The notes under the pieces were generated by a model. It was not told the origin of the DNA, made no database searches, and saw only the letters and a list, made by a program, of their open reading frames with translations. Below, in pieces: positions 1-39,477 of a DNA stretch of 39,477 bases. The position numbers were made by a program, and so were the translations under genes. The stretch is from a virus: IMG/VR virus record IMGVR_UViG_3300045988_134561; one strand, given 5' to 3'. Numbering within the stretch: position 1 is the first letter of the stretch; every line of letters starts with the position of its first letter.

Positions 1-55
1 CGCACTGCGGCTCACCTGGCCGCCGGACGGTAACGGCAAGCACCGGAAGTGAGAG
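1..55. repeat. Terminal overlap copy 1 (identical to 39423-39477); carries the 3' end of the CDS that starts at 39358 (stop TGA at 50-52)
   Basis: Read directly: cgcactgcggctcacctggccgccggacggtaacggcaagcaccggaagtgagag occurs at both ends. Confidence 0.95.
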
Positions 56-4092: not shown

Positions 4093-4551
4093 TTAGAAGG
4101 GGGGCTCGCTGGTGGGGGCGCCCCCGGTCCCCCACGGGTCCTGCGCCGCCGCGGGGACGTTCCCCGAACCGAACGCCGCCGGCTGCGCTGGCTGACCATG
4201 CTGGGTGGGCTTCGGGTGCAGCCCCCAGGTGTCCACGTTCAGGTTCAGGGCCGCGGCCGGCTGGCCGTCGTTCCCGGCCCAGGCGCGCACACCAGGGCGG
4301 CCGGTGAGGGTGAGGAGCTGGCCTTTCTGGACGTGCTCACAAAAGGTCTCCGCCTGGTCTCCCCACACGCTGGCTCGCACCCACACGGCGTCACCGGCAT
4401 CGACCCATTGGCCTGTCTGCTGGTCGTATCGGCGTGGCGTGTAGGGGATGCTGACGTTTGCGACGGGTTTCCCGGATGGGGTGAATCGCATTTCGGGGTC
4501 TGCGGCCGCGTACCCGGTGACCGTCATTTCAAGTTGGGGCCTTGCAGCCAT
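4093..4551 (-). CDS. ssb: Single-stranded DNA-binding protein
   Basis: OB-fold-like N-terminus (LTGRPGVRAWAG..., FRLA-type context), Gly/Pro/Gln-rich linker and terminal acidic tip SEPPF. RBS AGGAAGGAA. Confidence 0.9.
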   Translation of the reverse strand: MAARPQLEMTVTGYAAADPEMRFTPSGKPVANVSIPYTPRRYDQQTGQWVDAGDAVWVRASVWGDQAETFCEHVQKGQLLTLTGRPGVRAWAGNDGQPAAALNLNVDTWGLHPKPTQHGQPAQPAAFGSGNVPAAAQDPWGTGGAPTSEPPF

Positions 4552-6486: not shown

Positions 6487-6708
6487 TCATGCCGCCCCCG
6501 TGGGGTGGTTGGGGCAGACGACCTCCCCGTCCATGTCGTCGGTGACCTCCCAGCCGAGACGGCGGGCGAGGGCGTAGGCGGCGTTGAGGAGAGTGACGTT
6601 CCGGTCCACGTCGTCGGGGCCTTCAGGAAAGTCGATCCGCTCCTCACAGCCGGGCCAGTCACAGGACATCGACACATAGGCCCGCCGAACCGGGATGACC
6701 TGGATCAT
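6487..6708 (-). CDS. Hypothetical 73-aa protein
   Basis: ORF with ATGA overlap to the upstream gene. Confidence 0.55.
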   Translation of the reverse strand: MIQVIPVRRAYVSMSCDWPGCEERIDFPEGPDDVDRNVTLLNAAYALARRLGWEVTDDMDGEVVCPNHPTGAA

Positions 6709-7490
6709 GACCGTCCTTCGTCCTGGAAGAGGTCGGTGGGGTCGGGGTACTGCTGGGGCTGCTCGACCGCCGGGGTCAGGCGGCGGGCGCCACCGTCCAC
6801 GCCCAGGTCACGCATGAGCCCATCCACCGTGAACCCCTGAATCGGGAGATGCTGCCCCTGCGCCGCCTTCACCTTCAAGGACCGCAGCCCCGTCAAGTAG
6901 GTCTCCCCCGGTGCCCGCATCTCCACGGTCCCCGTCACCTCGAACGGGAGAGACTTCTCCGCGCGCACCTTCCACGTCTTGTCCGTCGTCGGCCGCCCGT
7001 TCGCCATAACCGTCACCTGCTCCAGGCGCGCGGTCACGAGCACGGGGCCGGGGTGCGAGTTGAGGGCGGTCACGAGCTTGCGCCACTGCCGCTTCGCCGT
7101 GTTCCACTGGTCGATCGTCATGGACGACTTGCCGCGGCGGATGGTGACGGCCTCCTGCTCGCCGATGAGCATGTCCCAGACGTTGGTGATGGAGTCAACG
7201 ACGATGCAGTTCGGCTTGCCGGCCCGGGTGGGTTCGGCGCTGGCGTCTCGGACGGCCTGGAGGATGGACGCCATGGTGCCGTCGTGCTCGACGATCTCGT
7301 ACCGTGCGCCCGGCAGGGATCCATACATGTCGGCGTCGCTCTCGCCGACCTCGATCCAGAACGTGCGGCCGATGAGGTCACTCGCGGAGAACGCCGCGGC
7401 TGCGTAGGACTTGCCGGACTTCTCCGCCCCGGCGAGGAGGAGGAACGGCCAGGAGACCTGCCCGGTCGGCTTGCGTGTTTTGAGAGCCAT
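6705..7490 (-). CDS. RecA-like/AAA_24 ATPase (Sak4-type recombination protein)
   Basis: Walker A GAEKSGKS near the N-terminus. Walker B-like CIVVDSIT. Sits between a nuclease and SSB-containing early genes. Confidence 0.65.
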   Translation of the reverse strand: MALKTRKPTGQVSWPFLLLAGAEKSGKSYAAAAFSASDLIGRTFWIEVGESDADMYGSLPGARYEIVEHDGTMASILQAVRDASAEPTRAGKPNCIVVDSITNVWDMLIGEQEAVTIRRGKSSMTIDQWNTAKRQWRKLVTALNSHPGPVLVTARLEQVTVMANGRPTTDKTWKVRAEKSLPFEVTGTVEMRAPGETYLTGLRSLKVKAAQGQHLPIQGFTVDGLMRDLGVDGGARRLTPAVEQPQQYPDPTDLFQDEGRS

Positions 7491-7492
7491 GG

Positions 7493-8350
7493 TCAGTCCT
7501 TGTCTGAGTCGAGGTAGTAGGCGGGGGCGGAGATGGAGTGGACGATGGGTGGGATGCCGGGCCACTCCCCGGAGTCCAGGCACTCCCGGTAGGTGCGGAG
7601 AGCTCGCTCGACCTTGGTGCGGCCGAGGTCATCCAGGGTCCAGTCCATTTCGCAGACGGACACGAGGTAGGGGGCCCGCTTGGAGACGACGACGTGGAGG
7701 AAGCGGGCCTCCTCGCCGGTGAGGTCACGCCAGATGCGCCGGTACCAGGCTCGCTGCACGTCGTAGCCGTAGCGGGCTGCCGCCCTCGTGAAGGCGTCGG
7801 GCTGGGCGTCGTCCGTGGTTTTCAGGTCCACCAGGACGTGCGCGCCGTCCCCGCCGGCGGGGGGCATGATCCAGTCCAGGCGGCCGCGCATCCACACACC
7901 GGTGCCGGCGTCCTCACTGAACACGCTCACCTCCGGGTCTCCGTCGGCGAAGATGCGACGGCACAGGGGGTGCTCGGTGACGGCGGCGGCGCAGTCGTGG
8001 ATGGCGTCGTAGACGTCCGCCTTCAACGGGATCCCACCCTCGGCGCGGACGCCGGCTGCCCACTCGCGGGCCGCCTTCGTCCCCGTCGAACCGGACGCGG
8101 ACAGCACATCCTCCGGGTAGCACTCCAGGTGCGCGCCCACGCCAAGCACGAGCGAGTGGACAGCGCTCCCGAAGTCAAACTCGGGGCGGGGCGCTCGCGG
8201 CCTGTTCCTGTAGTAGTGGAGGGCCGCGGGGGCGTCCAGGATCATCTTGGCTTCGGTGGAGGACAGGGAACGGTGGGGTGTGGGGTCGCAGTGGTACCAC
8301 TGCTCGTCGAGGCCGTGATAGATGCCTGGCTTGTCGATGATGAGGCTCAT
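7493..8350 (-). CDS. PD-(D/E)XK (Cas4/RecB-like) exonuclease
   Basis: C-terminal 285 aa of the 696-aa track ORF. Motifs LVDLKT and QRAWY (QxxxY). ATGA-coupled start at 8350. Confidence 0.7.
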   Translation of the reverse strand: MSLIIDKPGIYHGLDEQWYHCDPTPHRSLSSTEAKMILDAPAALHYYRNRPRAPRPEFDFGSAVHSLVLGVGAHLECYPEDVLSASGSTGTKAAREWAAGVRAEGGIPLKADVYDAIHDCAAAVTEHPLCRRIFADGDPEVSVFSEDAGTGVWMRGRLDWIMPPAGGDGAHVLVDLKTTDDAQPDAFTRAAARYGYDVQRAWYRRIWRDLTGEEARFLHVVVSKRAPYLVSVCEMDWTLDDLGRTKVERALRTYRECLDSGEWPGIPPIVHSISAPAYYLDSDKD

Positions 8351-8640
8351 AGCGGGTAGGTCCTTGCTCGGCTGGGCATGGGGGCTGGGGAGACGCAGGG
8401 GTGGCCGGCGGCCGCCAACTCGGCGACGGTGGGGTTCCGGCGCGGCTTGGGGCGAGGCTTGATGCCCTGCCGCCTGCGCCTGGCTTCGGATCGGCGGGCG
8501 TTGCCGCACTTCGAGCAGCAGCCTTTCCCCTGGTGGGGGAGACTGCCGGGCCAGTCTTCGACGTCGGCGCTCCGGGGGCGCATGAGGACCCCGCAGGCGA
8601 CGCAGTGCTGGGGGATGCCCCAGTCGATTCTGCGGCTCAC
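8347..8640 (-). CDS. Small zinc-finger protein with Arg-rich tail
   Basis: GTGA-coupled GTG start. CVACG...CCSKCG motif. Confidence 0.45.
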   Translation of the reverse strand: MSRRIDWGIPQHCVACGVLMRPRSADVEDWPGSLPHQGKGCCSKCGNARRSEARRRRQGIKPRPKPRRNPTVAELAAAGHPCVSPAPMPSRARTYPL

Positions 8641-8844: not shown

Positions 8845-9105
8845 TTAGAGGCCGTTGGTGAGTGCGTCGGCATCGACGCTTAGGAGGGTGGCGAGGGATT
8901 CGAGGAGCCTGGCCCGGTGTGCGGCGTGCTGGCCGAGGGCGCCCCAGGGGGTGTGGGCGTCGATTCGGCCGGCCCCGCGGCGTTGCCGGTCCCGCTCGTC
9001 GAGGGCGGCGGTCTCGCTGTCCTGGTAGTCGGCGCAGGCGCACAGGAACTCGGCCGCGTCGCCGACGTCCACGTCGTCGCCGGTGACATCTTCGAGGCGG
9101 GTCAC
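8845..9105 (-). CDS. Hypothetical acidic 86-aa protein
   Basis: GTGA-coupled GTG start relative to the stop at 9102. Confidence 0.45.
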   Translation of the reverse strand: MTRLEDVTGDDVDVGDAAEFLCACADYQDSETAALDERDRQRRGAGRIDAHTPWGALGQHAAHRARLLESLATLLSVDADALTNGL

Positions 9106-9713
9106 TTGTCCGCCACCCACGCCATCCAGGCGGTGGTCTCCTCGGCGAGGTCATTGGAGGAGAGGGTGTCGTCCCTGGTGGGGGTGGCCCAGACTCCGCC
9201 GTCCTCGTCGTCGATGCGGGTCCAGGCCCGCCCGGCTTCGTCGCGGACGACGGTGCCGTTCGGGAGTGCCCAGAGGTCGTGGGAGTACATGCGGGCCCGC
9301 CCGTAGGCGGTGGCAGTGACGGCGTGCAGGATGGATTCGAGTGCGGTGATTTGGTCGGCGTTGACCTCCTTCTGGCTGAGTTCAGCGAGGATGGAGGCGG
9401 CGTTGTCGGCGGCGGTCTTCCACTGGTTCCGGTAGAGGTCCACCTGGCCCTTGAGTTGGTCGATGGTGTCGCGCTGTTCGCGGACGGTCTGGGCGAGGGC
9501 CTGCTCGCTGAGGGTGGGATCCGCGGCCTTCTCGGCGGCTTTGCGCTGGTCGGCGGCGAGCATGAGGAGGCTGATCGCGCCAATGGGGTCGCTGCCGCTG
9601 CGGTCGAGGAGGTCGCGGGCCTTGTCGCCGTAGGTGGCGGTGGCTCGGGCGCGGTCCTCGACGGCTGCGGCGGGGACGTAGCGCGCGGGCTTGGGGTGAA
9701 GGTTGACCTTCAT
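9102..9713 (-). CDS. Hypothetical 203-aa coiled-coil protein; first gene downstream of the duplicated promoter/operator module
   Basis: ORF with AAAGGACC upstream of the ATG. Confidence 0.6.
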   Translation of the reverse strand: MKVNLHPKPARYVPAAAVEDRARATATYGDKARDLLDRSGSDPIGAISLLMLAADQRKAAEKAADPTLSEQALAQTVREQRDTIDQLKGQVDLYRNQWKTAADNAASILAELSQKEVNADQITALESILHAVTATAYGRARMYSHDLWALPNGTVVRDEAGRAWTRIDDEDGGVWATPTRDDTLSSNDLAEETTAWMAWVADK

Positions 9714-9770
9714 TTTTCATGGTCCTTTGATCTGGGGATAGTGTGGGTTGGGTTGGGGTGCCCGTGTTGC

Positions 9771-9858
9771 CCACATGGATAACTTAGTGCTCCATGTGGA
9801 GCATATGCAAGCCGAAAGCGTCCCGGTTACCGAATCGTGATGACGGGGGTGTGGAATC
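9771..9858 (-). promoter_or_regulatory. Second copy of the switch-type promoter/operator module (leftward)
   Basis: Minus strand reads TTGCAT (9810-9805), an 18-nt spacer, then TAAGTT (9786-9781). Inverted 8-mers CCACATGG (9771-9778) and CCATGTGG (9792-9799). GTTACCGAA box at 9826-9834. Ungapped colinear with 15993-16056. Confidence 0.6.
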
Positions 9859-9920
9859 GCCTAAGGCCCCTCAGGCGCCCCAAAAACGGGCGACCCTACA
9901 CGGGCACAGACGCGGGGGCG

Positions 9921-10601
9921 TTAGGCCGCCCTAGTGGCCTTACGCGCACGATTCGAGGCACCCCCGGGGCGCCCACCACCCCCAGGGTGCGACGAACGCG
10001 CCAGAGCGGCCAACACCTCACGAGCCCGAGCCGCCCCATCACCCGACGACTCAGGCGACGGCGCAGCCGTCAACTCAGCCACCGGACGGGCCGACGGAAG
10101 CGCGTCAGCCCACGGCACACGCCCCGCACCCAGAGCGTGATCCATCCGAGCCAGCACCTCCGGCAGCGGCGTCGACGGCTCCAGCTCGGCCACCTGTGCC
10201 GCCTGCGCCAACGCAGCGCGCCCATGCCGGTCCGCGTCCACGTCGGCAGCGCCGTTGCCGATGGCCCTCAGGAAGCCCCGCAGGTACGCCGACTGCTCGA
10301 AGCCGCTGCGGCCCTCCGTCGGCAGGCTGTGGCGCTCACGCCAGGCCCGGATGCGCTCGCCCCGGACGGCCTTCGCGGCTCGGTTCACGTGCTGCGGCTT
10401 CGCCGCCCCGTAGGTCTCGACGTCGCCGGACGCGACGCGACGCACCGCCTCGGCGAGCACCTCGTCGGTCATGTCCTGGTCGAGGAGCGTCATCCAGGCG
10501 CGGATGCGCCGCTTGCCGCCCTCGGCGTCGACGATGCCGGGCAGCATCCCGGCATCCACGAGGATCCCGATTGCCAGGCTCACGCCCGTTGCGGTTGCCA
10601 T
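9921..10601 (-). CDS. Hypothetical 226-aa protein (replication-module position)
   Basis: ORF ATGA-coupled to the replication initiator gene. Confidence 0.6.
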   Translation of the reverse strand: MATATGVSLAIGILVDAGMLPGIVDAEGGKRRIRAWMTLLDQDMTDEVLAEAVRRVASGDVETYGAAKPQHVNRAAKAVRGERIRAWRERHSLPTEGRSGFEQSAYLRGFLRAIGNGAADVDADRHGRAALAQAAQVAELEPSTPLPEVLARMDHALGAGRVPWADALPSARPVAELTAAPSPESSGDGAARAREVLAALARSSHPGGGGRPGGASNRARKATRAA

Positions 10602-11524
10602 CAGAGCCCCTCCTTCGCGAACTGCTCGGCCAGGTCGTAGAACACCTGGCCGCCCTGGGATTGCCCGCCACGAGGCCGCTGGGACTGGAGGCGGAGCGTG
10701 TCGAACTTCTGGCGGAGCTTGGGGACGCTGAGGACGTTGGCGCGCCAGAAGTCGTTGCCCTCGGCCCAGTCGATGACGCGGGTGATCTCCTCGACGGTGC
10801 GGCCGTCGCGGTCGATCATGAGGCGGGCCTGTGTGCGCCAGGCGGCGGTGATGCGGGGGGTGCGTCCGGTGCGGCGCTGGACGCTCGCGGCCATGGCGTC
10901 GCAGACGGCGTCGACGTCGGGGCGGTGCTCGGCGATTGGGGTCGGCTCGGTGGCGTCCTCGTCGTCGCGCGCGCGTCCTCTCTCCGACGTAGTCGGAGAG
11001 AGTTTAGAAGTACGTAGTACTTCTTCTTTCTCTTTCTCTTTCTCTGTATTACCGCTGGTAGTACGACTCGTATCCGGGTTCGTAGTACGAGTCGTATCAC
11101 GAGTGGTATCGCGTCGCTCCCACCGGCGACGGACATTGGCGGAATTCCGCGCCCTACGGGCATCCGACTGCTCCTTGGAGTCCTGGTGCTCCAGGAAGTC
11201 ACGCAGCACGTAGTCCCCGGTCTCGTTCACCTCCAAAGAGGGCCTATCAGGGTGGTTCGTACGCAGTTCCGTAATAGGGTCCGTACTACGACTCGTATCC
11301 GGGTTCGTAGTACAACTCGTATACGAGTCGTATCCCCAACGTCGATCCGCGTACACCCTCGGGATCACCCCATCGGTCTCGCCGCGCCGGCACCAGAGGA
11401 TCATCTCCACCAGCGCCCGGAACGCGGCGTCCGACAGGACCACCACCTTCGGGGAGTCCGCGAAGTCCACCGTCATCCGCGCCCAGATGCGGCGGTCACT
11501 GCTGCGAGTCATCGCCGCCCCCAT
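10601..11524 (-). CDS. Replication initiator / DnaD-like replisome organiser with internal origin
   Basis: N-terminal winged-helix-like region. Low-complexity Thr/Arg/Asp linker encoded by DNA iterons. Conserved-looking C-terminal domain (ITRVIDWAEGNDFWRANVLSVPKLRQKFDTL). Start may be 11512. Confidence 0.6.
   Translation of the reverse strand: MGAAMTRSSDRRIWARMTVDFADSPKVVVLSDAAFRALVEMILWCRRGETDGVIPRVYADRRWGYDSYTSCTTNPDTSRSTDPITELRTNHPDRPSLEVNETGDYVLRDFLEHQDSKEQSDARRARNSANVRRRWERRDTTRDTTRTTNPDTSRTTSGNTEKEKEKEEVLRTSKLSPTTSERGRARDDEDATEPTPIAEHRPDVDAVCDAMAASVQRRTGRTPRITAAWRTQARLMIDRDGRTVEEITRVIDWAEGNDFWRANVLSVPKLRQKFDTLRLQSQRPRGGQSQGGQVFYDLAEQFAKEGL
11001..11335. repeat. Putative origin of replication: palindromic iterons plus AT/pyrimidine-rich tract
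   Basis: TACGA(C/G)TCGTA at 11062, 11086, 11287 and 11322, plus a 1-mismatch copy at 11311. Exact 27-nt direct repeat at 11062-11088 and 11287-11313. AT-rich tract 11001-11056 in a high-GC genome. Confidence 0.6.
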
Positions 11525-11693
11525 CCGTCGTCCAGAACGCTTCCAAGGCCACCGGGCACAAGGAGTCCTCGTCGTAGTCCAACTCGACCCGTGAGTCCGC
11601 GTGGGCTCGCACCTGCTCGGCGAGCGCCAGCAGGTCTGCCCTGGGGATCACCTCACCGTCGAGCGGGATCCTGGCAGTCATCTCAATCATCAT
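11496..11693 (-). CDS. Hypothetical acidic 65-aa protein
   Basis: ORF ATGA-coupled to the upstream gene. Confidence 0.5.
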   Translation of the reverse strand: MMIEMTARIPLDGEVIPRADLLALAEQVRAHADSRVELDYDEDSLCPVALEAFWTTDGGGDDSQQ

Positions 11694-12145
11694 TTCCTCC
11701 TAGCATTTGTTACGGGGCTGGTTTGCATGCGCCAGGTGAACGCCGTCCACGCTTCGTCGTCCCACGCCTGCGTGGGATCAGCGTCTCTGGCTGCGCACTC
11801 GGCAGCGGACTCGGCAAGCTCTTCCAGGTAGCGCCCCCACATACCTGCGGTATCGAACAGGAACAGATAGCCGGAGACACCGACATCGCCCATGGCCTCA
11901 TACGCCCAATCCTGGAAGTCGCTGCCACAGTAGGAGTCGTCGCTGTAGGGGCCCTTCCACCTCATGACGTGACTGACCACGGCTTGGCATGGCTGGCACT
12001 CGCGCCACTCCCAGATCGCCCCGTCGTCGACGACCGTCGACCGGCGGTACCGCTCGCCCTGGGGGATGCGGCGGCCACAGTCATCGCACCGGACGCGCCC
12101 CCGCGACCGGGGAGACCTCTCGTGAATGACATCCACGATGTTCAC
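11690..12145 (-). CDS. Hypothetical protein with zinc-ribbon motif (CDDCG...CQPC)
   Basis: 151-aa ORF with ATGA overlap at 12142-12145. Confidence 0.6.
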   Translation of the reverse strand: MNIVDVIHERSPRSRGRVRCDDCGRRIPQGERYRRSTVVDDGAIWEWRECQPCQAVVSHVMRWKGPYSDDSYCGSDFQDWAYEAMGDVGVSGYLFLFDTAGMWGRYLEELAESAAECAARDADPTQAWDDEAWTAFTWRMQTSPVTNARRK

Positions 12146-12774
12146 CGCCCTTCCTGGGCTGCGAGGCGTGCGGGTAGGTCGATCGCGTGAGCGCTGTAGG
12201 TGTACTCGTCCTCGCGGCCGACGAGAACCCAGTCACCTAGATACAGGTGGAACAGGTTGCCGTATGCGTCCATCAGGACTGCGCCGGCAGGCGCGTTGCG
12301 GACGTCGTTGATGGTGGTGAGGGACTGGCCGGTGACGTGATCCTGAGCCTTGGAGACGCGGACCTGGACGCCGACGAGGTGGGTGTTGTCGGCGTAGCGC
12401 TTGACGGCGGACCAGCCGACGATCCGGGAGTCATCACGCAGGACACCGGGCCGCTTGTAGGGGGCCAGGGCGTCACCGACGGCGCGCTGGAGCTTGTCCA
12501 AGTCGGGCTTCATCTGCGCGTGCTTGCGGGACTTGGGGGCGCTCTTGGGGCGTGGGAGCCGGAACTCTGCCCACACCTCGACTGGGCCGTCGTAGCGGGG
12601 TTCCCAGTAGGCGGCCTGTGCGGCGGCTTCGGCGGCTCGGCGGACTTTGATCCGCCACGCGTCCAACTCGGGTCCGCGGTCGTGGGTGACGACTACACGC
12701 TGACCAGACGCGAACGCGCGCGTGGAGCCCTCGGTGATCGGCTCACCGGGGACGAAGAATGAGAATGAGTCCAT
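12142..12774 (-). CDS. rusA: RusA-family Holliday junction resolvase with C-terminal extension
   Basis: N-terminal FFVPGEPITEGSTRA, then FRLPRPKS and KPDLDKLQRAVGDAL...RDDSRIV, typical of RusA. About 65 extra C-terminal residues. Confidence 0.75.
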   Translation of the reverse strand: MDSFSFFVPGEPITEGSTRAFASGQRVVVTHDRGPELDAWRIKVRRAAEAAAQAAYWEPRYDGPVEVWAEFRLPRPKSAPKSRKHAQMKPDLDKLQRAVGDALAPYKRPGVLRDDSRIVGWSAVKRYADNTHLVGVQVRVSKAQDHVTGQSLTTINDVRNAPAGAVLMDAYGNLFHLYLGDWVLVGREDEYTYSAHAIDLPARLAAQEGR

Positions 12775-12800
12775 GATGGTTCCTAGTGTTTGGGGGCGGG

Positions 12801-13193
12801 CTAGGCCGCCAGGAGAGAGAAGAGGTCGCCCTGCTCGAGCGCCGGTGCGGCGTCAGCGTGGCCGGTGAGGTAACAGGTGCAGCGAGGGTCATGGGTGACG
12901 TTGGTGTCCCACACCTGCCAGGAATCGACGCCAGCGAGGATCGGGACACGCCCCTGGGTGTCGGTGACCCAGCAGAGGGGCGCGTCGGCCGGCCAGCGGT
13001 CCATCCGGTGGGTGCAGGCGGCGTGGTCACCCGCCCGGCAGCCTTCGCACACGCCGCCATTGCCGTAGAAGCGGCGGCAGGGGCACCGGTCGTAGAGGTG
13101 CGGCCACTGGGTGTAGTCGCGCCGCATGGGAGGCAGCCAGGCGTGCTCTCGCACCCAGGTCGCCTCCTCAGCGGGCATCACGGGGGTATCCAT
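12801..13193 (-). CDS. Hypothetical Cys/His-rich protein
   Basis: 130-aa ORF with multiple CxC/CxxC motifs. Confidence 0.55.
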   Translation of the reverse strand: MDTPVMPAEEATWVREHAWLPPMRRDYTQWPHLYDRCPCRRFYGNGGVCEGCRAGDHAACTHRMDRWPADAPLCWVTDTQGRVPILAGVDSWQVWDTNVTHDPRCTCYLTGHADAAPALEQGDLFSLLAA

Positions 13194-13196
13194 CGG

Positions 13197-13460
13197 TCAG
13201 AAGAGGGGGATGGTCCCCATGGTGGGGTCCTCGACGTCGGTGGACTGGTGGGCGGTGAGGCAGGTCGGGCAGACCTGCGCCTTGGTGATGTTCTCCTCGT
13301 CGGCGGGGGCGTACTGGCTGCCAACTGAGTCCCACAGGGCGATCGTTCGCCTCCCGGCGCAGAGCGCCTCAATCTCGACGGCGGTAGGCCCGTAGAGCGG
13401 GGCAGGTGTGACGTCAGCGATGTGCCGAACCAGCAAGCCGGGCGTCAGGTAGCGGGTCAT
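13197..13460 (-). CDS. Hypothetical 87-aa protein
   Basis: ORF with ATGA overlap at 13457-13460. Confidence 0.55.
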   Translation of the reverse strand: MTRYLTPGLLVRHIADVTPAPLYGPTAVEIEALCAGRRTIALWDSVGSQYAPADEENITKAQVCPTCLTAHQSTDVEDPTMGTIPLF

Positions 13461-13978
13461 GACTCCTCCTGCCAGAGTCCGCGCTCGGCAGCCAGAGCCG
13501 CACAGATAGCCTCGAAGAGGAGATCGTGGAGGCGGTAGACGATGATCTCCCCGCTAGGGTCGTAGCCCTGGTGGTAGCAGGATGCGAGGTCTCCTAGGGC
13601 GCTGAGGAGCCAGCCGATCCGCTCGGCGGGGTCCATGCCCAGGTCTCGGTCGCGGAGCTCGTATCCGATCATCTTCAGGATGGGCTCGAGGTAGCCGTCT
13701 GGGTCCCGTTCACTGAGCGCCTGGAGGCATCTGGCGGCGACGAGGGTGGCGAGGTTCTTCGCCTGGTCGCTGGGTGGGTGGCCCTCCTTGGCGCGTTTGG
13801 CTGCGGCTGCCCATGAGGCGCACAGTTCGGCGACGTCGCGGGCGAGGCTGGCGACAGGCTTCCCTGGCGTGTCCTCTTCCGTCGCCCAGAACTTGCTGAT
13901 CGCCTGCCGTGCCCGCTCGGCGTGAGCGAGCATGGCCTCGAAGTCGGCGCGGCGCTGTTTCATCGTCAGGGTGGTCAT
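13457..13978 (-). CDS. Hypothetical 173-aa helical protein
   Basis: ATGA-coupled Met (MTTLTMKQRR...) inside ORF 13457..14185. Confidence 0.55.
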   Translation of the reverse strand: MTTLTMKQRRADFEAMLAHAERARQAISKFWATEEDTPGKPVASLARDVAELCASWAAAAKRAKEGHPPSDQAKNLATLVAARCLQALSERDPDGYLEPILKMIGYELRDRDLGMDPAERIGWLLSALGDLASCYHQGYDPSGEIIVYRLHDLLFEAICAALAAERGLWQEES

Positions 13979-14766
13979 GCTGCGGCCCCCTGGGTGATGG
14001 TGTAGCGGCCGGTGAGGAACCCGTCGATGAGGTCGGCTTGGCCGGCTGCGGTGATCTTGGGGGTGGTCTTCTCTTCGCTGCCGTGGTTCGTGGTGATGAG
14101 GGTGACTGAGGCGCGCAGGAAGCCCTTGTCGAGCGCCCACTGAGTGGGGGCGTTCCAGAGGCGTCCGCGGTTGCGGCACAGCCACCCGTGGTCGCGGAGC
14201 CAGGTGAACAGACCGGGTTGGGAGATGCGGACGCCTTCGGCGGTGATGGCGGCGGCGACCTGTTTCACGAGGAGGTCTCCGTCTGAGGCGGCCAGTGTCC
14301 GCCCGAACCGGGTCATGGGGGCGTCCTCGGCGACTTTCGCTTCAAGCTCGGCGCGTGCGGCGCGCTCGTTCTTCAGGTCGGTGGCGAGGCGGATGAGGAG
14401 GTCGGGGTCGGTGAGGACTTTCTCCAGGGTGTCGGGGGTCATGTATGCCCCGTGCTTGCGGATGCTGGGGAGGACCTCTGTGGTGATCCAGCGGCGGAAC
14501 GCTTTGGCCTCGGGCTTGTCGCTGCGGAGGATGACTTCGTAGAGGCCGGCCTCGGTGATGATGGTGGTCGCCTGGGTGCCGCCAGGGGTGTCCATCGGGT
14601 GGACGCCCTTCATGTCGGTGTCTAGGCGGGCTGAGACGTTCCGGGTATTTGTGATCCCGAGGGCGTGGCAGACGTCTGCGAGGACGAAGCGGGGTTCGCC
14701 GTCGGGGCCGGTGAGGGTGCGGACGGCGTGTCCCTGGTAGTCGAATGGGGTGATGGTGGTGGTCAT
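13975..14766 (-). CDS. Antirepressor (BRO-N domain plus KilAC/ANT-like C-terminal domain)
   Basis: FDYQGHAVRTLTGPDGEPRFVLADVCHALGI...EAGLYEVILRSDKPEAKAFRRWITTEVLPSIRKHG matches the BRO-N pattern. ATGA-coupled start at 14766. Confidence 0.75.
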   Translation of the reverse strand: MTTTITPFDYQGHAVRTLTGPDGEPRFVLADVCHALGITNTRNVSARLDTDMKGVHPMDTPGGTQATTIITEAGLYEVILRSDKPEAKAFRRWITTEVLPSIRKHGAYMTPDTLEKVLTDPDLLIRLATDLKNERAARAELEAKVAEDAPMTRFGRTLAASDGDLLVKQVAAAITAEGVRISQPGLFTWLRDHGWLCRNRGRLWNAPTQWALDKGFLRASVTLITTNHGSEEKTTPKITAAGQADLIDGFLTGRYTITQGAAA

Positions 14767-15065
14767 GCTGCTTTGGCTTCCTGGTCGTTGTGGTGGGGGT
14801 GCTGGGGCTGTTGGAGGGCGCGGGCTTCGTGGTCGCTGGCGTACCGGGCGCGGATGGTGAGGGTGAGGATGGGCTGAGCCCCGTGCTGGATTGAGGCCCT
14901 GGGGTCGGAGAGGAGGACCATGCCGAGCGTGCGCAGTAGGTCCATGAGGTCTGCGGTGGCCTCGCCGCGCTGGTGGACCACGGGCACGTCGGGGATCATT
15001 CGCCACAGGTAGCGGTACTCGTTGCCGCCCATGGGGGTGATCTTGGTGATCGGGGAGATGGTCAC
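14763..15065 (-). CDS. Hypothetical 100-aa protein
   Basis: GTG start preceded by GAAAGGAAC with 5-nt spacing. Part of the shadow-extended ORF 14763..15374. Confidence 0.5.
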   Translation of the reverse strand: MTISPITKITPMGGNEYRYLWRMIPDVPVVHQRGEATADLMDLLRTLGMVLLSDPRASIQHGAQPILTLTIRARYASDHEARALQQPQHPHHNDQEAKAA

Positions 15066-15076
15066 GGGGGTTCCTT

Positions 15077-15265
15077 TCAGGCTTCGGGGAGGCGGTCGAT
15101 CCAGGCTTCGAGGTCGTCTCGGCGGATGATGTACTTGGTGCCGGCCATGTGGGCGGGGAGGTGGAAGTCGGGGTCGGTGGCCTTGACGGCCTTGCGGATG
15201 AAATCGACGGACAGGCCGGTGGCGGCGGCGGCCCCGGCGAGCGTGTAGGTGAGGACGACGGTCAT
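15077..15265 (-). CDS. Excisionase-family / MerR-like HTH DNA-binding protein (candidate Xis)
   Basis: 62 aa. The pattern LSVDFIRKAV...GTKYIIRRDDLEAWIDRL resembles excisionase-type winged HTH proteins. Confidence 0.5.
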   Translation of the reverse strand: MTVVLTYTLAGAAAATGLSVDFIRKAVKATDPDFHLPAHMAGTKYIIRRDDLEAWIDRLPEA

Positions 15266-15426
15266 CAGTGCCCCTCTTTCTCGGTGCGGATGGTGTGGGT
15301 GACGGTGGCGGCGGTGAGGGCGGCTGCGAGGAGGAGGACGCCCGTGTGGTGGCCGAGCGTGGCGCTGAGGGCAAGCTCGGTGAGGATGGCGGCGGCAGCG
15401 GCGGCGGCGAGCGCGTAGGTGGTCAT
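15265..15426 (-). CDS. 53-aa Ala-rich membrane peptide
   Basis: ATGA overlaps at both ends (15423-15426 and 15265-15268). Two hydrophobic stretches. Below the ORF-track cutoff as an independent ORF. Confidence 0.45.
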   Translation of the reverse strand: MTTYALAAAAAAAILTELALSATLGHHTGVLLLAAALTAATVTHTIRTEKEGH

Positions 15427-15731
15427 GCCGCTACCGCCTCGGCGCTGAGGTGGCGGCGGCTGCTGATGAGCCAGCGGCCGACTCTGCGGCTCGTGGACTC
15501 GTAGGTGTTCCCGCTGCGGGTGTAGATGGTTGTGGCTTTGAGCCCGAGGAGGCCTGCGAGGGCTTGGGCTCCGCCGTCGTAGGGGATGAGGTCGATGGTG
15601 AAGAGTCCGCTGTGGTGGGCGAAGACGTCGACGGTGCGGATGTCGATGCAGTTGCGTTCGGCCTCTTCGATGAGGGCGTTCACGAGGGGGAGCGCTTCGC
15701 TGATGGGGCGCTGGGTGGTGGGGTTGCACAT
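15423..15731 (-). CDS. Hypothetical 102-aa protein
   Basis: ORF with AGGAAC upstream of the ATG. Confidence 0.55.
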   Translation of the reverse strand: MCNPTTQRPISEALPLVNALIEEAERNCIDIRTVDVFAHHSGLFTIDLIPYDGGAQALAGLLGLKATTIYTRSGNTYESTSRRVGRWLISSRRHLSAEAVAA

Positions 15732-15768
15732 GGGGGTTCCTAGAGATGGTGGGGGGGGTAGGTTGGGG

Positions 15769-15996
15769 TTACTTGGTGGCCTGCGTGAGGAGGTCGGTGG
15801 GGGTTGTGTTGAGGGCTCCGGCGAGGCGTTCGGTTTCGTCGATGGTGAGTCCGTGGCCTTGGTTGTGGAGTCGTCGGTAGAGGGTTGGGTAGGGGATGCC
15901 GGTCTTCCGGCTGGTTTCGGAAACCGAGAGGTTGGATTCTTGGAGTTGTCGGTTCAGGACCTCCGCGAGGCGGGCGGTCATCGGCGCGTTAACCAT
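15769..15996 (-). CDS. Cro-like XRE-family HTH regulator (first early gene, possibly leaderless)
   Basis: HTH pattern LSVSETSRKTGIPYPTLYRRL. The ATG lies 6 nt after the predicted -10 TAGATT. Divergent from the repressor. Confidence 0.7.
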   Translation of the reverse strand: MVNAPMTARLAEVLNRQLQESNLSVSETSRKTGIPYPTLYRRLHNQGHGLTIDETERLAGALNTTPTDLLTQATK

Positions 15997-16091
15997 ATGG
16001 ATAATCTAGTGCGCCATATGGATCACTGGCAACTTCCTGGGAGCCGCGTTACCGAAATGCGATCTTGTTCCCCATATGGAATAGTGATCGC
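15993..16091. promoter_or_regulatory. Genetic-switch intergenic region with three CCATATGG operators and divergent promoters
   Basis: CCATATGG at 15993, 16014 and 16072. Leftward TTGCCA (16032-16027), 18-nt spacer, TAGATT (16008-16003). GTTACCGAA at 16048-16056. Confidence 0.65.
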
Positions 16092-16397
16092 ATGGCCAAG
16101 ATCGACAAGGACCCCACCAAAGGGCTGAACGCCGCCGTCGCTGCCGAGCTCCGGGCCGAGCGCGTAGCCCAGGAAGTCACCTTCGATGACCTCGTGGAAC
16201 GCGTCAGCCTCTCCAGGGCCACGACCTGGAGGCTGCTCAACGCCGAGCGCCTCATCACCATCGAAGCCCTCGTGGAGTTCGCCGGAGCCCTCGGCGTCAG
16301 CGTCCTGGAGATCGTCGAGCGCGCCGAGAAGCGCCTAGCAAGGGAGGCACCCCCCCCCCGCCGAAGGGGGCGCCGCCACGCCCTAGCGATGGCGTAG
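16092..16397 (+). CDS. CI-like XRE-family HTH repressor
   Basis: HTH pattern VTFDDLVERVSLSRATTWRLLNAER. Divergent from the Cro-like gene and followed by a terminator. Met10 of ORF 16065..16397 chosen (no SD; possibly leaderless). Confidence 0.7.
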   Translation: MAKIDKDPTKGLNAAVAAELRAERVAQEVTFDDLVERVSLSRATTWRLLNAERLITIEALVEFAGALGVSVLEIVERAEKRLAREAPPPRRRGRRHALAMA

Positions 16398-16414
16398 CGC
16401 CCTAGAGACACAGA

Positions 16415-16443
16415 GAGGCCCCCACCGCGATGGTGGGGGCCTC
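16415..16443 (+). terminator. Intrinsic terminator after the repressor gene
   Basis: 12-bp stem gaggcccccacc / ggtgggggcctc with a 5-nt loop, followed by a T-containing tail. Confidence 0.65.
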
Positions 16444-16518
16444 AGTGTTGTTGGCGGCTGGCTACCCAGGGCGACGTGACCTTTCGTTGGGAATACTGGG
16501 GAAAGTCGGTTTGTCGGA

Positions 16519-16750
16519 AACATTGCTATCCAACTGCTATTTTGGGGGTAGTTTCGCGGCGTGGATCTGCGGTATTCTGCCGATCATGGGGGTCAAGGCC
16601 CGCTGTCTTGTAAACAGCAGGTCGTCGGTTCGAGTCCGACAAGCGGCTCCACGAATCCGCGGAATCATGCGGAAAACCACTCCCCCACGGTACGCTGTCA
16701 TGCGACAGTCTAGGCAACACATTGCTATCCAAACTGCTATCCGCTGCTAC
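16519..16750. other. attP region: tRNA-derived core flanked by arm-type direct repeats
   Basis: ACATTGCTATCC(A)AACTGCTAT at 16520-16540 and 16719-16740 (plus CCGCTGCTAC at 16741-16750), flanking the tRNA-like core. Lower GC than the surroundings and directly upstream of int. Confidence 0.6.
16579..16651 (+). tRNA. tRNA-Thr(UGU)-like sequence, probably only the 3' portion is authentic (attP core)
   Basis: Clean anticodon arm gctgt-cttgtaa-acagc, T-arm gtcgg-ttcgagt-ccgac, and acceptor 3' strand plus CCA. The D-arm is truncated and 2 of 7 acceptor pairs mismatch. Confidence 0.45.
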
Positions 16751-16763
16751 CCGAGGAGGAGTC

Positions 16764-18026
16764 ATGGCGTACGGCGAAGGGTCCATCTACCAGCGCAAGG
16801 ACGGGAAGTGGGTCGCCGCCCTCCCCGTCGGCTACACCCGCACCGGCGGACTCAAACGCGCCACCCGGATCCGCAAGACCGAAGCCGAAGCCAAGCGCGC
16901 CCTACGCCAACTCCGCCGCGACCACGCCGCCGGCCAGACCCAAGGCGCAAGCCCAAGAACCACCCTCAAGACCTGGTGCGACCAATGGAAGCAGGCGGCC
17001 GCCCAGCGCCTCCGCCCCAAGGCATACCTCAGCGCCAAAGACCAGATCGACCACTGGATAGTCCCCACCCTCGGACACAAACGCCTCACCGACCTCACCC
17101 CCGCAGACATGCGCACCCTCGACCGCGCCCACGAGGCCGCCGGCAACTCCACCTCCACGGCGCGACGCACACGCGCCGTCCTCTCCAAGATCCTCACCGA
17201 CGCACGCAGCGAAGGCCACCACGTCCCCACCAACGTCCTCGACGTCCCCCTCCCCAGAAAGGCCCCCAACCCGAGGGGAGCCATCCCCGTCAACGACGCC
17301 GCCACACTCCTCCACGCCTCCACTGAACCCGACGCCTGGCCGCCCCTCCCGACCAACGTCAGCACCCAGCAGCGCAAGTCCCGCCGCCTCGCCGGCGAGC
17401 AAGACGCCAGCCGGTGGGTCGCCGCCCTCCTCCAAGGCGCACGCCAAGCCGAATGCCTCGGCCTCACCTGGGACCGCGTCAACCTCGACGACGGCACCCT
17501 CACCATCGACCGCCAGCTCCAATACATCCCCACCCGCGCCATGGAAGGCGACCGCCCCCCGTCCTGGTACGCGGCCGAGCACCTGACTGGCCGATACTGG
17601 CTCGTACCGACCAAGACTCAGGCCGGGAAGCGAGTGCTGCCGATGACGCCGTGGATGGCTGCAGCCCTGAGCGCCTGGCGCGACCAGTGCCCGCCCTCCC
17701 CCTACGGGCTCGTGTGGCCCCGCTCGGGGGGCGGCCCGTGGTCGGGGGGTGACGACCGGCTGGCCTGGCGAGGGCTCCAGGATGCGGCTGGTGTCCACAA
17801 GGGCGGATCCGGCACCGAGGGTGACCCGTGGTCCTACTGGACGGTCCATGAGGCCCGGCACTCGACGGCGACGCTCCTCATGGCCGCTGGCGTCCCGGCC
17901 ACCGTCGTCATCTCAATCATGGGCCACTCAGCCATCACCGTCACCCAGAACTACCAGCACGCCGATCTGGAGATGGCTCGACAGGCGCTCGAATCGGTCG
18001 CCCCAAGACTGGGCCTCAGCGCGTAG
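16764..18026 (+). CDS. int: Tyrosine integrase (phage integrase family)
   Basis: N-terminal MAYGEGSIYQRKDGKWVA arm-binding-like motif. C-terminal HEARHSTATLL...GHSAITVTQNYQH catalytic motifs. SD GAGGAGGA 3 nt before the ATG. Confidence 0.9.
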   Translation: MAYGEGSIYQRKDGKWVAALPVGYTRTGGLKRATRIRKTEAEAKRALRQLRRDHAAGQTQGASPRTTLKTWCDQWKQAAAQRLRPKAYLSAKDQIDHWIVPTLGHKRLTDLTPADMRTLDRAHEAAGNSTSTARRTRAVLSKILTDARSEGHHVPTNVLDVPLPRKAPNPRGAIPVNDAATLLHASTEPDAWPPLPTNVSTQQRKSRRLAGEQDASRWVAALLQGARQAECLGLTWDRVNLDDGTLTIDRQLQYIPTRAMEGDRPPSWYAAEHLTGRYWLVPTKTQAGKRVLPMTPWMAAALSAWRDQCPPSPYGLVWPRSGGGPWSGGDDRLAWRGLQDAAGVHKGGSGTEGDPWSYWTVHEARHSTATLLMAAGVPATVVISIMGHSAITVTQNYQHADLEMARQALESVAPRLGLSA

Positions 18027-25742: not shown

Positions 25743-28700
25743 TCAGTCGTTGCGTGACGCCTCGACGGCGACGCGCTCAGCCTCGACGCGCATCCGGCCG
25801 ATGAGTTCGCCGTCGACGTCGCGCACCTCGAGCACCGAGGGCGTGTTGCCGCCCTTGCCGAGGATGTCGCCGATCTTGGACCACTGGCCGCCGGTGAAGA
25901 CGGGCTCGGGCTTGCCGGTGGCGTTGAGGACCGTCGTCAGGCCCGGCTGCAGGAGGCCCCCGGAGTCGAACTTGTAGAGGCCGGTCGACGGCGACCCGTA
26001 GATCGGGGTTTCCCGCACCGGGATGCCGAATGTGGGGGCCTCGACCATCCGGCCGCCACCACTGGCGATGGCGATGTGGTGCGCCGGGTACCCCCAGAAC
26101 AGCAAGGTTCCTGGGGTGTTGTAGGAGCCGCCGGGCGTGGAGCCCGCCTGGTAGCCGGCCGCCGTCAGACGCGGGATGTTGCTACCCATCTGGTGCGCCG
26201 CCCAGTAGACCAAACCGGAACAGTCGACGCCGGGCGGGATGCTCGATCCTCCCCACACGTAGGTTGCGCCGATTGCTTTCCGCGCGGCGTTGACTATGTC
26301 CGAGGCTGCCATGGTCGCGGTCTTGCCCTTGAGCCACTCCCCGAAGCCATCAACCCACTTCCCCGGCAAGGCGCCCGCCATGTCATGGAAGAACGCCGTC
26401 CCTGGCAGGCCGGCCATGGCCGCCTTCATCGGGAGCCGCATCAGGGCATCGACCGCGCCAAGCGGGTCGGTGATGATCGATGCGACCGCATCCGCCGCAC
26501 TGGACAACCAGCTCGTGGCCGCGTTCCAGCCGCTGCTGGCAGCCCCCTTGATCTTGCCCCAGATACCGCCGTCGGCGAAGGCCGCGAACCGGGCGCCCTG
26601 GTCTCCGCCGGGGATGTGCGCCCCGCTCGAGCCGCGGGCGGCCGCGTTCATCCGGTGCACGGCTGCGGGTCCGCCGACCGCCTTCACCCACTCGGGCCGC
26701 ATGATCGCCTCACCGCCGGACAGGGCCAGCGCCCCGCCGCCGTCGGGCGAGAAAAAGTGGTAGATATCCTTTCCCGGCGAATATCCGGGCAGCACACCAC
26801 CAGAGGCGTAGCCAGGGATCCCGGAGACGGACGGGAGTCTCATCGACAGGCCGAGCTTCTCCGCAATGGAGTCCGCCGTCTTCTTAATGCCGTCGCGGTA
26901 GACCGTGTTGATGATGAAGTTGATCGGCTTAGCGGCGACCGACTTAACCCCATCCCACACGGTCTGAATACCAGACTTCATGGTCTCGAATGCCTTTTTG
27001 ATATTCGTGGTGACCGTATCGAAGATCGGCTTGACCGTGTTCTGGAACCAAGACACGACCGTGTTGATTGTCGACTTGATGCCATCCCAGACGGTCTTCA
27101 AGCCATTCCACAGCGTGTCCGCGCCGGACTTGATGCCGTTCCACACCGTGGAGATGACGGGCTGCACGTAGGTCTGGAACCATGAGACGACCGTGAGCAC
27201 GGTGGCCTTGATGCCATTCCAGATGGCGACGATCCCATTCCACAGGAATTGTGCGCCCACCTGAATCCCGGTCCACACTGCGGAAATGACCGGCATGACG
27301 TAAGCAGTGAACCAATCGGCAACGACCTGCACCGCGGCCTTGATCCCATTCCAAATCGTGACGATCCCATTCCACAGGAACTGAGCCCCGACCTTGATGC
27401 CGTCCCAGACAGCAGCCAGCACGGGAGCCACGTAGGCGTTGAACCAGTCAACAGCAGTGCCGACGGCGGCCATGATCCCGTCCCACACCCAGACGATGCC
27501 CGCCCACAGGTACTGCGCCCCGGTCTTGATGCCATCCCAGGCGGCAGCGAGGACAGGCCCAACGTAGGTGACCACCCAGTCCACGACTGTCGAGATCGCA
27601 GCCCACCACATCTGGAAGTACAAGACGACGGCGGTAGCCAGGACCCACACGGCAACCTTGATGCCGGTCCACACCCCAGAAAGGACCGGGCCGACGTAAG
27701 TGGAGATCCAGTCCACGACCGTCGAGATCGCCGTCATGATCCCGCCCCAGACAGCGGTCACCGCGCCGCTCAGGACCGACCACACGCCACTCAGGACACT
27801 CACGGCACCCGAGATCAGCGGCACCACATAGGAGGTGAAGAACCCGCTGACAGCGCCCCACACCGTGTTCCAAGTCGAGCTGAGCGCGTTCAGGGTTGCG
27901 TCCCAGTAGGGGGCGATCCAGTCCAGGAACTTCTTGAACTCGGCGGTGATCGCCGCCCACGCTTTCTTGCCCGTCTCCGTCTGGGTGAAGAACCACGCCA
28001 GGGCTGCGACGACAGCGAGAATCGCGGTCACGATGAGGATGTACGGGTTCGCGTTCGAGACCACGTTGAAGGCCGCCTGCGCCTTCTTCGCGGCGTCCAC
28101 GGCCTTCTCCATTGATTTGAGGCTGGTCACCCATTTCAGGACGCTGCCGGCCTGCTTGATCGCGTCAATCGCCTGCGTCGCCTTGTGGAGGGTCCAGAAA
28201 GCGCCCGCAGCGGTGCCGACGGTGACGGCCAGGGTGGAGAGCATCCCCTTGTGCTCGATCCCCCAGGACGTGGCCGACAGGAGCGCGTCACCGACCTTCA
28301 CGATGGCGTCTCGCAGGCCCTCCAGGAAACCGGTCAGCGGCGAGTTCGGGTCCAGCCCGAACAGGGGCTTGTCCGTCTCTCCGGTGAAGATGATCTCCGC
28401 GAGCCCCTGCACAGACGGAATGAGCGTGTCATTGATCCACGTGCCGGCCTCGATAGCGGCATCACGGACACTGGAGAGGAAGCTGACCAGGCCGCTGTCC
28501 TCGGAGAGGCCGAAGAGGTTGCCGTCGTACTTGCCCGTGAACAGGAGGGTTCCGAGGCTCTCCACGGACGGCACGAGGGTCCCGGTTATCCAGTCCCCGG
28601 CGGCCCGGGCGGACTCCCCGATCTTGAAGAGGAAGTCAACGATCCCGGAGTCCTCTTCGAGTCCGAAGACCTTGGAGGAGCCGTCAAACTGCCCCTTGGA

Positions 28701-39357: not shown

Positions 39358-39474
39358 GTGAACCAGGTTCTCACCATCATCGGCACGGTAGCGTCGGTGC
39401 TGGGCCTACTGGTCTCGCTGATCGCACTGCGGCTCACCTGGCCGCCGGACGGTAACGGCAAGCACCGGAAGTGA
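39358..39474 (+). CDS. 38-aa single-pass membrane peptide (VNQVLTIIGTVASVLGLLVSLIALRLTWPPDGNGKHRK); first gene of the rightward cassette
   Basis: GTG start 4 nt after the strong SD GAGAGGAGGA (39345-39354). Hydrophobic core with a basic tail. Below the 60-aa cutoff of the ORF track. Promoter-like TTGCAT-18-TACACT lies upstream. Confidence 0.6.
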   Translation: MNQVLTIIGTVASVLGLLVSLIALRLTWPPDGNGKHRK

Positions 39475-39477
39475 GAG
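39423..39477. repeat. Terminal overlap copy 2 (identical to 1-55)
   Basis: Exact 55/55 identity with the window start. Confidence 0.95.

Follow-up and report, generated by a model that had tools for sequence, protein, structure and literature searches.

A promoter/operator module of the immunity switch duplicated 6.2 kb away in the early region of a probable Actinomyces phage, and its likely control by the same small repressor

The DNA analysed here, a stretch of 39,477 bases (67% G+C; hereafter the window) in which nearly all genes lie on the minus strand, contains a short promoter/operator-like module between a repressor gene and a Cro-like gene (copy B) and a second version of it among the early genes (copy A), which raises the question of what the second version does. 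The first-pass annotation had proposed that it is a second repressor-controlled early promoter ahead of the recombination and SSB genes, and this proposal is supported by the conservation of both modules and by the joint change of recognition helix and operators among related phages. We therefore favour, as the probable reading, that copy A would be a second early promoter duplicated from copy B and controlled by the repressor encoded at 16092-16397. The identical 55-bp ends of the window (1-55 = 39423-39477) indicate a circular assembly of about 39.4 kb (39,422 bp). The genes and features on which the argument draws are the following.

4093-4551, minus strand: SSB
6705-7490, minus strand: Sak4-like ATPase
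7493-8392, minus strand: exonuclease VIII-like protein
9102-9713, minus strand: 203-aa gene, the first downstream of copy A (GC3 0.91)
207-bp gap between the 9102-9713 and 9921-10601 genes: copy A module
9921-10601, minus strand: 226-aa gene
10601-11524, minus strand: O-like/DnaD-like replication initiator
12142-12774, minus strand: RusA
13975-14769, minus strand: anti-repressor (BRO-N + KilAC)
15077-15265, minus strand: Xis-like HTH_17 protein
15769-15996, minus strand: Cro-like HTH_26 protein, 75 aa from a putatively leaderless ATG or 70 aa from the second ATG (Pfam HTH_26, 35.1 bits; PHROG 4583)
16092-16397, plus strand: repressor, 101 aa, XRE-type helix-turn-helix (Pfam HTH_31)
16579-16651, plus strand: tRNA-Thr(TGT)
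16722-18026, plus strand: tyrosine integrase

Copy A is flanked by the initiator and RusA genes upstream and by the exonuclease, Sak4-like ATPase and SSB genes downstream, and no Pfam or PHROG match was found for the 203-aa protein that directly follows it. The repressor gene (plus strand) and the Cro-like gene (minus strand) at copy B are divergent and 95 bp apart, and both encode helix-turn-helix proteins.

The similarity between the two copies was examined first at the nucleotide level. Positions 9771-9834 align with 15993-16056 without a gap, and a recount gave the 25 identities over the first 30 nucleotides that had been reported; the ungapped identity from these starting points was 31/43, 43/64 and 46/70 over longer stretches. 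The best ungapped local score between the two intergenic regions was 25, whereas 2000 dinucleotide-preserving shuffles gave a mean of 8.2 and a maximum of 16, with none reaching 25. Furthermore, the 29-nt core CCAYATGGATAAYYTAGTGCNCCATRTGG was found at two places in the window and nowhere else, even when up to three mismatches were allowed. Both copies have a common layout on the minus strand, consisting of a TTCGGTAAC box, 15 nt, TTGnnn, 18 nt and TAnnnT. In copy A, this reads TTCGGTAAC (9834-9826), 15 nt, TTGCAT (9810-9805), 18 nt, TAAGTT (9786-9781), ATCCAT and GTG (9774), and in copy B TTCGGTAAC (16056-16048), 15 nt, TTGCCA (16032-16027), 18 nt, TAGATT (16008-16003), ATCCAT and ATG (15996). 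The hexamers, the 18-nt spacer and the box at offset +55 are in register exactly where they had been placed originally, and the TGGAAT motif described beyond a 3-nt length difference is present at 9852-9857 and 16077-16082. These comparisons confirmed that copies A and B are a duplicated promoter/operator module, 6.2 kb apart.

In order to follow the module beyond the window, relatives were collected with an operator-only pattern, which gave ten IMG/VR loci, with the Cro-like protein, which gave 12, and with an alignment of the repressor, which gave 34; a pattern from the flanks of copy A gave 18 metagenome loci. All contigs found with the operator pattern carry TTGnnn-18-TAnnnT. Both modules were present in every group-1 relative, that is, in the immunity group of the window, that was long enough, at a distance of 6.1-7.3 kb (about ten contigs). 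No second copy was found within 10 kb of the switch in group 3 and more distant relatives, though the layout is kept there with other operators, which suggests that the duplication is derived in the lineage of groups 1 and 2.

The two copies share the 8-bp sequence CCAYRTGG in the spacer and again on the -10/start side. These positions had been described correctly, but the interpretation of the boxes as operator halves did not hold, since each CCAYRTGG is the core of a full 18-bp dyad. CCAYRTGG by itself was rejected as the operator because it is only weakly enriched in the window (8 found versus 3.8 expected), leaving the 18-bp dyads as the meaningful unit. When the whole window was scanned with a position weight matrix (PWM), five operator-like sites were obtained, two at A and three at B, and the next-best score (13.9) belonged to an unrelated sequence. 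The predicted operators are listed below.

9766-9783: O1A, 18-bp dyad GTTGCCCACATGGATAAC, PWM 23.7, overlapping the last 3 nt of the -10 and the predicted start (~9774)
9787-9804: O2A, 18-bp dyad GTGCTCCATGTGGAGCAT, PWM 23.2, filling the entire -35/-10 spacer
15988-16005: O1B, GTTAACCATATGGATAAT, PWM 28.5, overlapping the -10 and the start and containing the ATG of the Cro-like gene (15996-15994)
16009-16026: O2B, GTGCGCCATATGGATCAC, PWM 25.6, filling the 18-nt spacer
16067-16084: O3, a weaker third operator with core CCATATGG at 16072-16079, PWM 14.6, overlapping the extended -10 of the repressor gene

By PWM and symmetry, the predicted operators overlap the -35/-10 elements and start of the lytic promoter, with one more at the repressor's own promoter; an equivalent of O3 is absent at copy A. 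The centres of O1 and O2 are 21 bp apart in each copy, a spacing of two helical turns that would place both sites on the same face of the helix. When complementary pairs among the nine position pairs of each 18-mer were counted along the A copies, dyad symmetry across ten distinct A copies was 7.6/9 at O2 and 6.8/9 at O1, compared with ~2/9 elsewhere. For instance, O2A of locus L010 is the perfect palindrome GTGCTCCATATGGAGCAC, and symmetric differences on both arms were observed between GTCGCCATATGGCGAC and GTCGTCATATGACGAC (L014) and between CTCCATATGGAG and CCCCATATGGGG (L011). Such paired symmetric substitutions in the A dyads point to selection.

These observations bear on whether copy A could be a functionless relic of a duplication or a recombination junction, kept similar to B by occasional gene conversion. 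Its homology does include parts that would have no role at A, such as the in-frame RTG at +1, the box and a decayed TGGAAT, and the -10 variants TAAGTT, TAGGTT and TAGATT are shared as a patchwork among A and B copies of different genomes. However, the dyad symmetry of both A sites is kept in every copy, sometimes through paired changes, the repressor-proximal part has decayed while the operator/promoter part is intact, and the module is kept in all ~25 group-1 and group-2 genomes and fragments that reach this region. We consider a relic quite improbable.

If copy A is a promoter, its hexamers and start should be recognizable, and its predicted elements are compared here with those of copy B.

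9826-9834, minus strand: A box TTCGGTAAC (plus strand GTTACCGAA), 15 nt upstream of the -35
9805-9810, minus strand: A -35, TTGCAT
9781-9786, minus strand: A -10, TAAGTT (TAnnnT type)
9714-9774, minus strand: predicted A 5' untranslated leader of about 60 nt, with an AAGGA ribosome-binding site at 9723-9727 and the ATG at 9713
16048-16056, minus strand: B box TTCGGTAAC, 15 nt upstream of the cro promoter -35 and 35 nt before the repressor ATG
16027-16032, minus strand: B -35, TTGCCA, part of the only sigma-70-like hit in 9000-17000
16003-16008, minus strand: B -10, TAGATT, from the consensus promoter scan

Measured against the E. coli consensus, copy A matches at three of six positions in each hexamer, and the consensus scan of 9000-17000 missed it and called B only. 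In actinobacteria, the usual promoter form is TAnnnT with TTGnnn. Both copies have this housekeeping-sigma form, in which TTGnnn lies 16-19 nt upstream of TAnnnT (TTGCAT-18-TAAGTT in A and TTGCCA-18-TAGATT in B). By the E. coli consensus, copy A appears weaker than B, and yet it fits the actinobacterial form. In ten distinct A copies, the TTG of the -35 is invariant while positions 4-6 vary (CAC, AAC, CGT, CAT, CGC, CTC, CTT), and in the -10 no A copy departs from T1, A2 and T6, whereas positions 3-5 are variable (AGT, GGT, GAT, CAG). Within the eight distinct group-1 A copies, the invariant positions are the -35 TTG, T1/A2/T6 of the -10, the operator cores and the right arm of O2, and the variable ones are positions 4-6 of the -35, positions 3-4 of the -10 and the outer left arm of O2. 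Transcription starts had been suggested near 9775 and 15996; our predicted starts are 9774 and 15996, the former from the same geometry as at copy B. The predicted leader of A has no notable fold.

A 130-aa ORF (9382-9774, minus strand) starts with the GTG at the predicted +1 of A; it is out of frame with the 203-aa gene and has a weak coding signal. Relatives maintain its frame into 'ATGAAAAATGA', even L014 with a length difference of 12 nt, and the ORF is probably a by-product of the copied leaderless cro start. In addition, a 9-bp inverted repeat, CACGATTCG and CGAATCGTG (9948-9956 and 9831-9839, 108 bp apart), encloses the gap upstream of A and borders on the box; one of its arms is coding, and changes in relatives are uncompensated.

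Copy B shows what a start in this position would mean. An in-frame ATG or GTG lies exactly 6 nt after the -10 of the Cro-like gene in groups 1-3, L051, L053, L054 and L056, and 7 nt after it in the more distant L055 (-10 AATGAT); in several groups, this RTG is the sole possible start of the Cro-like protein. An RTG 6 nt past the -10 is a hallmark of leaderless mRNAs, so the cro transcript probably lacks a leader and would start at 15996, inside O1B. The 203-aa gene behind A does not follow this pattern, having a predicted leader of ~60 nt with the AAGGA site. On the other strand, the pattern TGn-nAnAnT, 6-7 nt, ATG recurs in front of the repressor gene in groups 1, 2, 3 and L053, and in the window it reads TGG-AATAGT-GATCGC-ATG (16077-16094; extended -10 at 16077-16085). 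The repressor mRNA is therefore probably also leaderless, with an extended -10 promoter overlapped by O3. By this reading, the TGGAAT of the first-pass annotation would be the TGn and the first half of the repressor gene's -10. The corresponding -10 is decayed at copy A (AATCGC in the window, GCGGAAGC in relatives), and TGGAAT is absent from the A copies of relatives, which have GCGGAAGC or GTGGAAGC there; the TGGAAT of copy A is probably what is left, after decay, of the extended -10 that belongs to the repressor gene. The duplicate of B from which A arose thus seems to have extended into the repressor promoter.

Taken together, the proposed mechanism is as follows. A duplication of ~90 bp of the promoter/operator region of the Cro-like gene (B, 15988-16056) would have given rise to A (9766-9834), a housekeeping-sigma-type early promoter read leftward from ~9774. 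Dimers of the 101-aa XRE repressor on O1 and O2 would keep RNA polymerase off. In a lysogen, the repressor would silence the unit behind B, comprising cro, the anti-repressor, RusA and the replication initiator, and likewise the unit behind A from 9713 on, comprising the exonuclease, the Sak4-like ATPase and SSB, and upon its loss both promoters would fire. That the same small repressor also silences the recombination genes is most likely. The further claim that replication and recombination are separately gated is not established, because a consensus scan found no canonical terminator between the 9921-10601 gene and A. A GC-rich compound hairpin is predicted upstream of A (z = -1.8), with covariation of almost nil (-0.3) in ten relatives. 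Copy A could be either the sole source of the exonuclease, Sak4-like ATPase and SSB transcripts or a booster on top of read-through from B.

The link between the modules and the repressor comes from phages of another specificity. The repressor matches Pfam HTH_31 with 30.5 bits (cut-off 27) over residues 16-72; in Pfam, no S24 domain was found, and HTH_26 and DUF134 scored below their own cut-offs. A single-sequence structure model of low confidence (pLDDT 52) has helices at residues 9-23, 31-38, 42-50, 57-67 and 71-85 and would place the recognition helix at about residues 42-50 (nt 16215-16241), with the variable patch on the third helix, a placement that agrees with the extent of the HTH_31 match. 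In group 2 (L014, L015, L019 and L020), the Cro-like protein is 83-94% identical to that of the window and its helix-turn-helix is identical, whereas the repressor homologue is 69-76% identical, with the differences concentrated in the recognition helix, where RATTWRLLN of group 1 is replaced by KSTLLLLFN and SLSRATTWRLLNAERLIT becomes SLSKSTLLLLFNARRLIS. The group-2 switch has the same layout and the same 21-bp spacing with different operators, GGTCGCCATATGGCGACC at O2, GTGTTCATGTGAACAC at O1 and GTGTTACATATGAACAC at O3, and copy A of L014 and L015, 6.2 and 7.2 kb away, respectively, carries group-2 operators as well (AGTCGYCATATGACGACC, TACA, GTGTTCACATGGACAC); the contigs of L019 and L020 end before the expected position of A. 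The window and L014 are collinear, with the same gene order and 83-93% identity, apart from three short divergent patches, namely the helix-coding segment of the repressor gene, the B operators, and a stretch of 52% identity made up of the A operators and the beginning of the A leader. Upstream of the A -35, by contrast, identity over 200 bp is 83-88%. This co-change of helix and operators is the strongest evidence that the same phage-specific protein, encoded at 16092-16397, reads both modules.

The pairing of helix and operator extends further, each recognition helix being accompanied by its own operator arms across six specificity classes. For example, the group-3 helix RSTVLNTLN occurs with operators TTTCCATATGGAAA and TTGCGnnCGCAA, the helix SARTLMRKL of L056 occurs with GTGACC-N4-GGTCAC, and L051, L053 and L054 have in common both the helix KRTLLRLLN and the arms GTGCC...GGCAC. 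Groups 2 and 3 have two different dyad sequences inside one switch. Among the IMG/VR loci L035-L056, at least four more immunity types were seen, with the same switch layout and different dyads.

It is also conceivable that the dyads are bound by the Cro-like protein or by a host factor rather than by the 16092-16397 protein, since a Cro protein normally shares its repressor's operators and since groups 1 and 2 and one group-3 site have the central CAYRTG in common. However, all operator arms differ between groups 1 and 2 while the helix-turn-helix of the Cro-like protein is unchanged, the recognition helix of the repressor alone co-changes with the arms, and differences in specificity among phages would be left unexplained by a host factor. 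Another binder of this kind is very improbable, and the Cro-like protein seems not to share the repressor's operators.

The matching of A and B operators within a genome could be brought about either by selection or by gene conversion from B to A, and the latter could copy operators and hexamers without selection on A. With an A that no longer matched, the genes downstream of it would escape repression in a lysogen. Against a strict match, L011 has an O2 variant at B, CCCCCATATGGGGT, without a counterpart at A. No third specificity with an A copy was found in IMG/VR and the metagenomes, so that a single evolutionary switch, that between groups 1 and 2, underlies the evidence for a joint change of A and B.

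The same matching, seen within both immunity groups, would also be expected if A were mainly a distal operator pair, with repressor bound at A and B looping out the 6.2 kb between them and thereby tightening the repression of cro or tuning its own promoter, a function that is compatible with promoter activity at A. The two dyads in each module, with the same geometry, and the weaker match of A to the promoter consensus are in line with this. In contrast, the TTG of the -35 and the T/A/T of the -10 at A are kept in all copies while their neighbours drift, A, within a 207-bp gap, precedes a gene that has a ribosome-binding site of its own, the 101-aa repressor has no oligomerization domain recognizable with Pfam, and relatives of other immunity groups lack any distal site. 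Looping as the main role of A is therefore a minority reading that we regard as unlikely, and a second early promoter under the repressor is preferred.

The box shared by the two modules had been left without an assignment. At copy B, it lies at about -56 relative to the cro start, covering roughly -60 to -52; on the other side, 35-37 nt separate it from the repressor ATG, which puts its centre near -40 of the repressor promoter. Groups 1 and 3, L053 and L054 have unrelated operators but share the box or a close variant (TYGGTAAC, TTCGATAAC) 15 nt upstream of the B -35, and L051 has a shorter box, GGTAACG, 14 nt upstream of the -35. In the group-2 B copies it is degenerate (TCTGATAAC) and 11 nt further away, and it is absent from L055 and L056. 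Its occurrence at B-type switches with unrelated operators indicates that the box is not tied to a single immunity type. It is present in every A copy, group 2 included, and in ten out of ten distinct A copies of relatives it has the same position and spacing (TTCGRTAAM); these copies are all closely related and the box is no better conserved in them than its flanks, so it may merely have been carried along at A by the duplication. In the window as a whole it is not enriched, with 5 one-mismatch matches compared with 4.8 expected.

Several assignments of the box were considered and rejected. A hairpin or dyad around GTTACCGAA (CGCGTT-ACCGA-AATGCG, 16045-16061) has arms that are not kept and an axis that differs between groups; as a -35 of the repressor promoter, the box would be 25 nt from that -10, which is too distant; and as a LexA site of the Cheo type, it has its half-sites in the wrong order, according to a comparison by eye with the known consensus. 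Among the regulators, only the Cro-like protein, in which IPxxTLxRRL is found in all groups, is conserved to the same degree as the box; it may plausibly bind the box and switch off the promoter of the repressor gene. The box may equally well serve as an upstream contact for RNA polymerase or a host factor. A combined scheme, in which the repressor reads the variable dyads, the Cro-like protein reads the box, and A is kept matched to B by gene conversion, appears doubtful as a whole. If it were true, binding of the Cro-like protein at the box would stop repressor synthesis without competition for the operators, and a change of immunity would need three short patches and no exchange of a block.

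The arrangement described here is ordinary phage control and falls within known kinds. In lambda, one repressor acts on two early promoters (OL/PL and OR/PR) through multipartite dyad operators that overlap promoter elements, and OL acts on OR via looping. The phage analysed here resembles lambda in its divergent repressor and cro genes, in the third operator at the repressor's own promoter and in the probably leaderless repressor mRNA, and, as among the lambdoid phages, its heteroimmune relatives have another recognition helix and other operators at both sets of promoters. However, the lambda promoters flank the repressor gene divergently, 2.4 kb apart, whereas here both point in the same direction, 6.2 kb apart and on one side of the repressor gene, with two operators at A and three at B, each of 18 bp. 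The lambda repressor has C-terminal oligomerization and RecA-dependent S24 self-cleavage, whereas the repressor here has 101 aa and consists of a single XRE domain, and the genome carries an anti-repressor gene instead. Furthermore, lambda Cro shares the operators of the repressor, which the Cro-like protein here probably does not, and a change of specificity involves three separate short patches here rather than one exchangeable block of the lambda type.

Repressors with many (more than 10) dispersed operator or promoter sites are C1 of phage P1 and the c repressor of Streptomyces phage phiC31. The likeness is that a single repressor silences several early units via repeated operators; the sequences and the protein families are different, and the second site here is a plain duplicate of the switch promoter. 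The closest solved structure by sequence to the repressor family is Corynebacterium ClgR (PDB 3f51), at a marginal E value of 9e-4. ClgR is a cellular activator of protease genes that binds dyad sites. Both are small actinobacterial XRE helix-turn-helix proteins, but the predicted sites of the phage repressor overlap core promoter elements, which suggests repression, unlike the activation by ClgR. Cluster A mycobacteriophages such as L5 and Bxb1 have an operator at Pleft and dispersed stoperators, asymmetric sites of 13 bp that number up to ~30 per genome, are oriented with transcription, are bound by a monomer, lie mostly outside promoters and block elongation (PMC6550527, PMC9283540). They too are actinobacterial phages with sites far from the repressor gene and a motif that tracks repressor divergence among heteroimmune phages (PMC6550527). 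Unlike stoperators, the sites found here number five, are all dyads and lie in two promoter modules.

With regard to the host, a megablast search of sequenced phages with 9000-17000 and a tblastn search with the repressor as query gave zero matches, and no prophage turned up when GTDB genomes were scanned with the repressor alignment. The nearest cultured phages are those of Propionibacterium freudenreichii, with a large terminase identity of at most 56%. The 3' part of the phage tRNA-Thr (16601-16651, 51 bp) is 100% identical to tRNA-Thr genes of Actinomyces oris, viscosus, johnsonii, stomatis, acetigenes and bowdenii, and matches to an exact 45-nt pattern from this stretch were restricted to Actinomyces genomes. 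Identity to the 3' part of a tRNA gene is the usual signature of an attachment site, so 16601-16651 is probably the attachment-site core and the host of this temperate phage is probably an oral Actinomyces. The stretch is flanked by direct repeats ACATTGCTATCC (16520-16531 and 16719-16730), which may be arm-type integrase sites.

No published description of an immunity switch was found for temperate phages of oral Actinomyces, and the present analysis provides a testable regulatory map for an uncultured group of temperate phages with probable hosts among them. The general picture of temperate phage control is unchanged. What is added are the natural pairings of helix and operator, six in number, which are useful for studying how small XRE repressors read DNA and are possible orthogonal repressor/promoter pairs for high-GC bacteria, and the conserved upstream box. 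It also provides a case in which a distant operator set stays matched to the repressor through a change of immunity.

Several further repeats were noted in the window. A run of ten C at 16345-16354, at the 3' end of the repressor gene, has 8-14 C in relatives, and past ...ERAEKRLAxxxPPP the tail of the repressor switches among three frames (RRRGRRHALAMA, PPKGAPRPSDGVAP and AEGGAAP); L019 and L020, for instance, have the same downstream DNA except for a difference of one C in the run. Either slipped-strand variation of the repressor tail or assembly noise could account for this. Iteron-like direct repeats, with units like TCGTAGTACGAGTCGTAT, are present at 11043-11109 and 11268-11322 within the O-like initiator gene, which resembles lambda with its origin inside gene O. 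Finally, four tandem 132-nt repeats (62-72% identical) at 27067-27594 lie within a 1289-aa ORF (25743-29612) that is probably the tape-measure gene.
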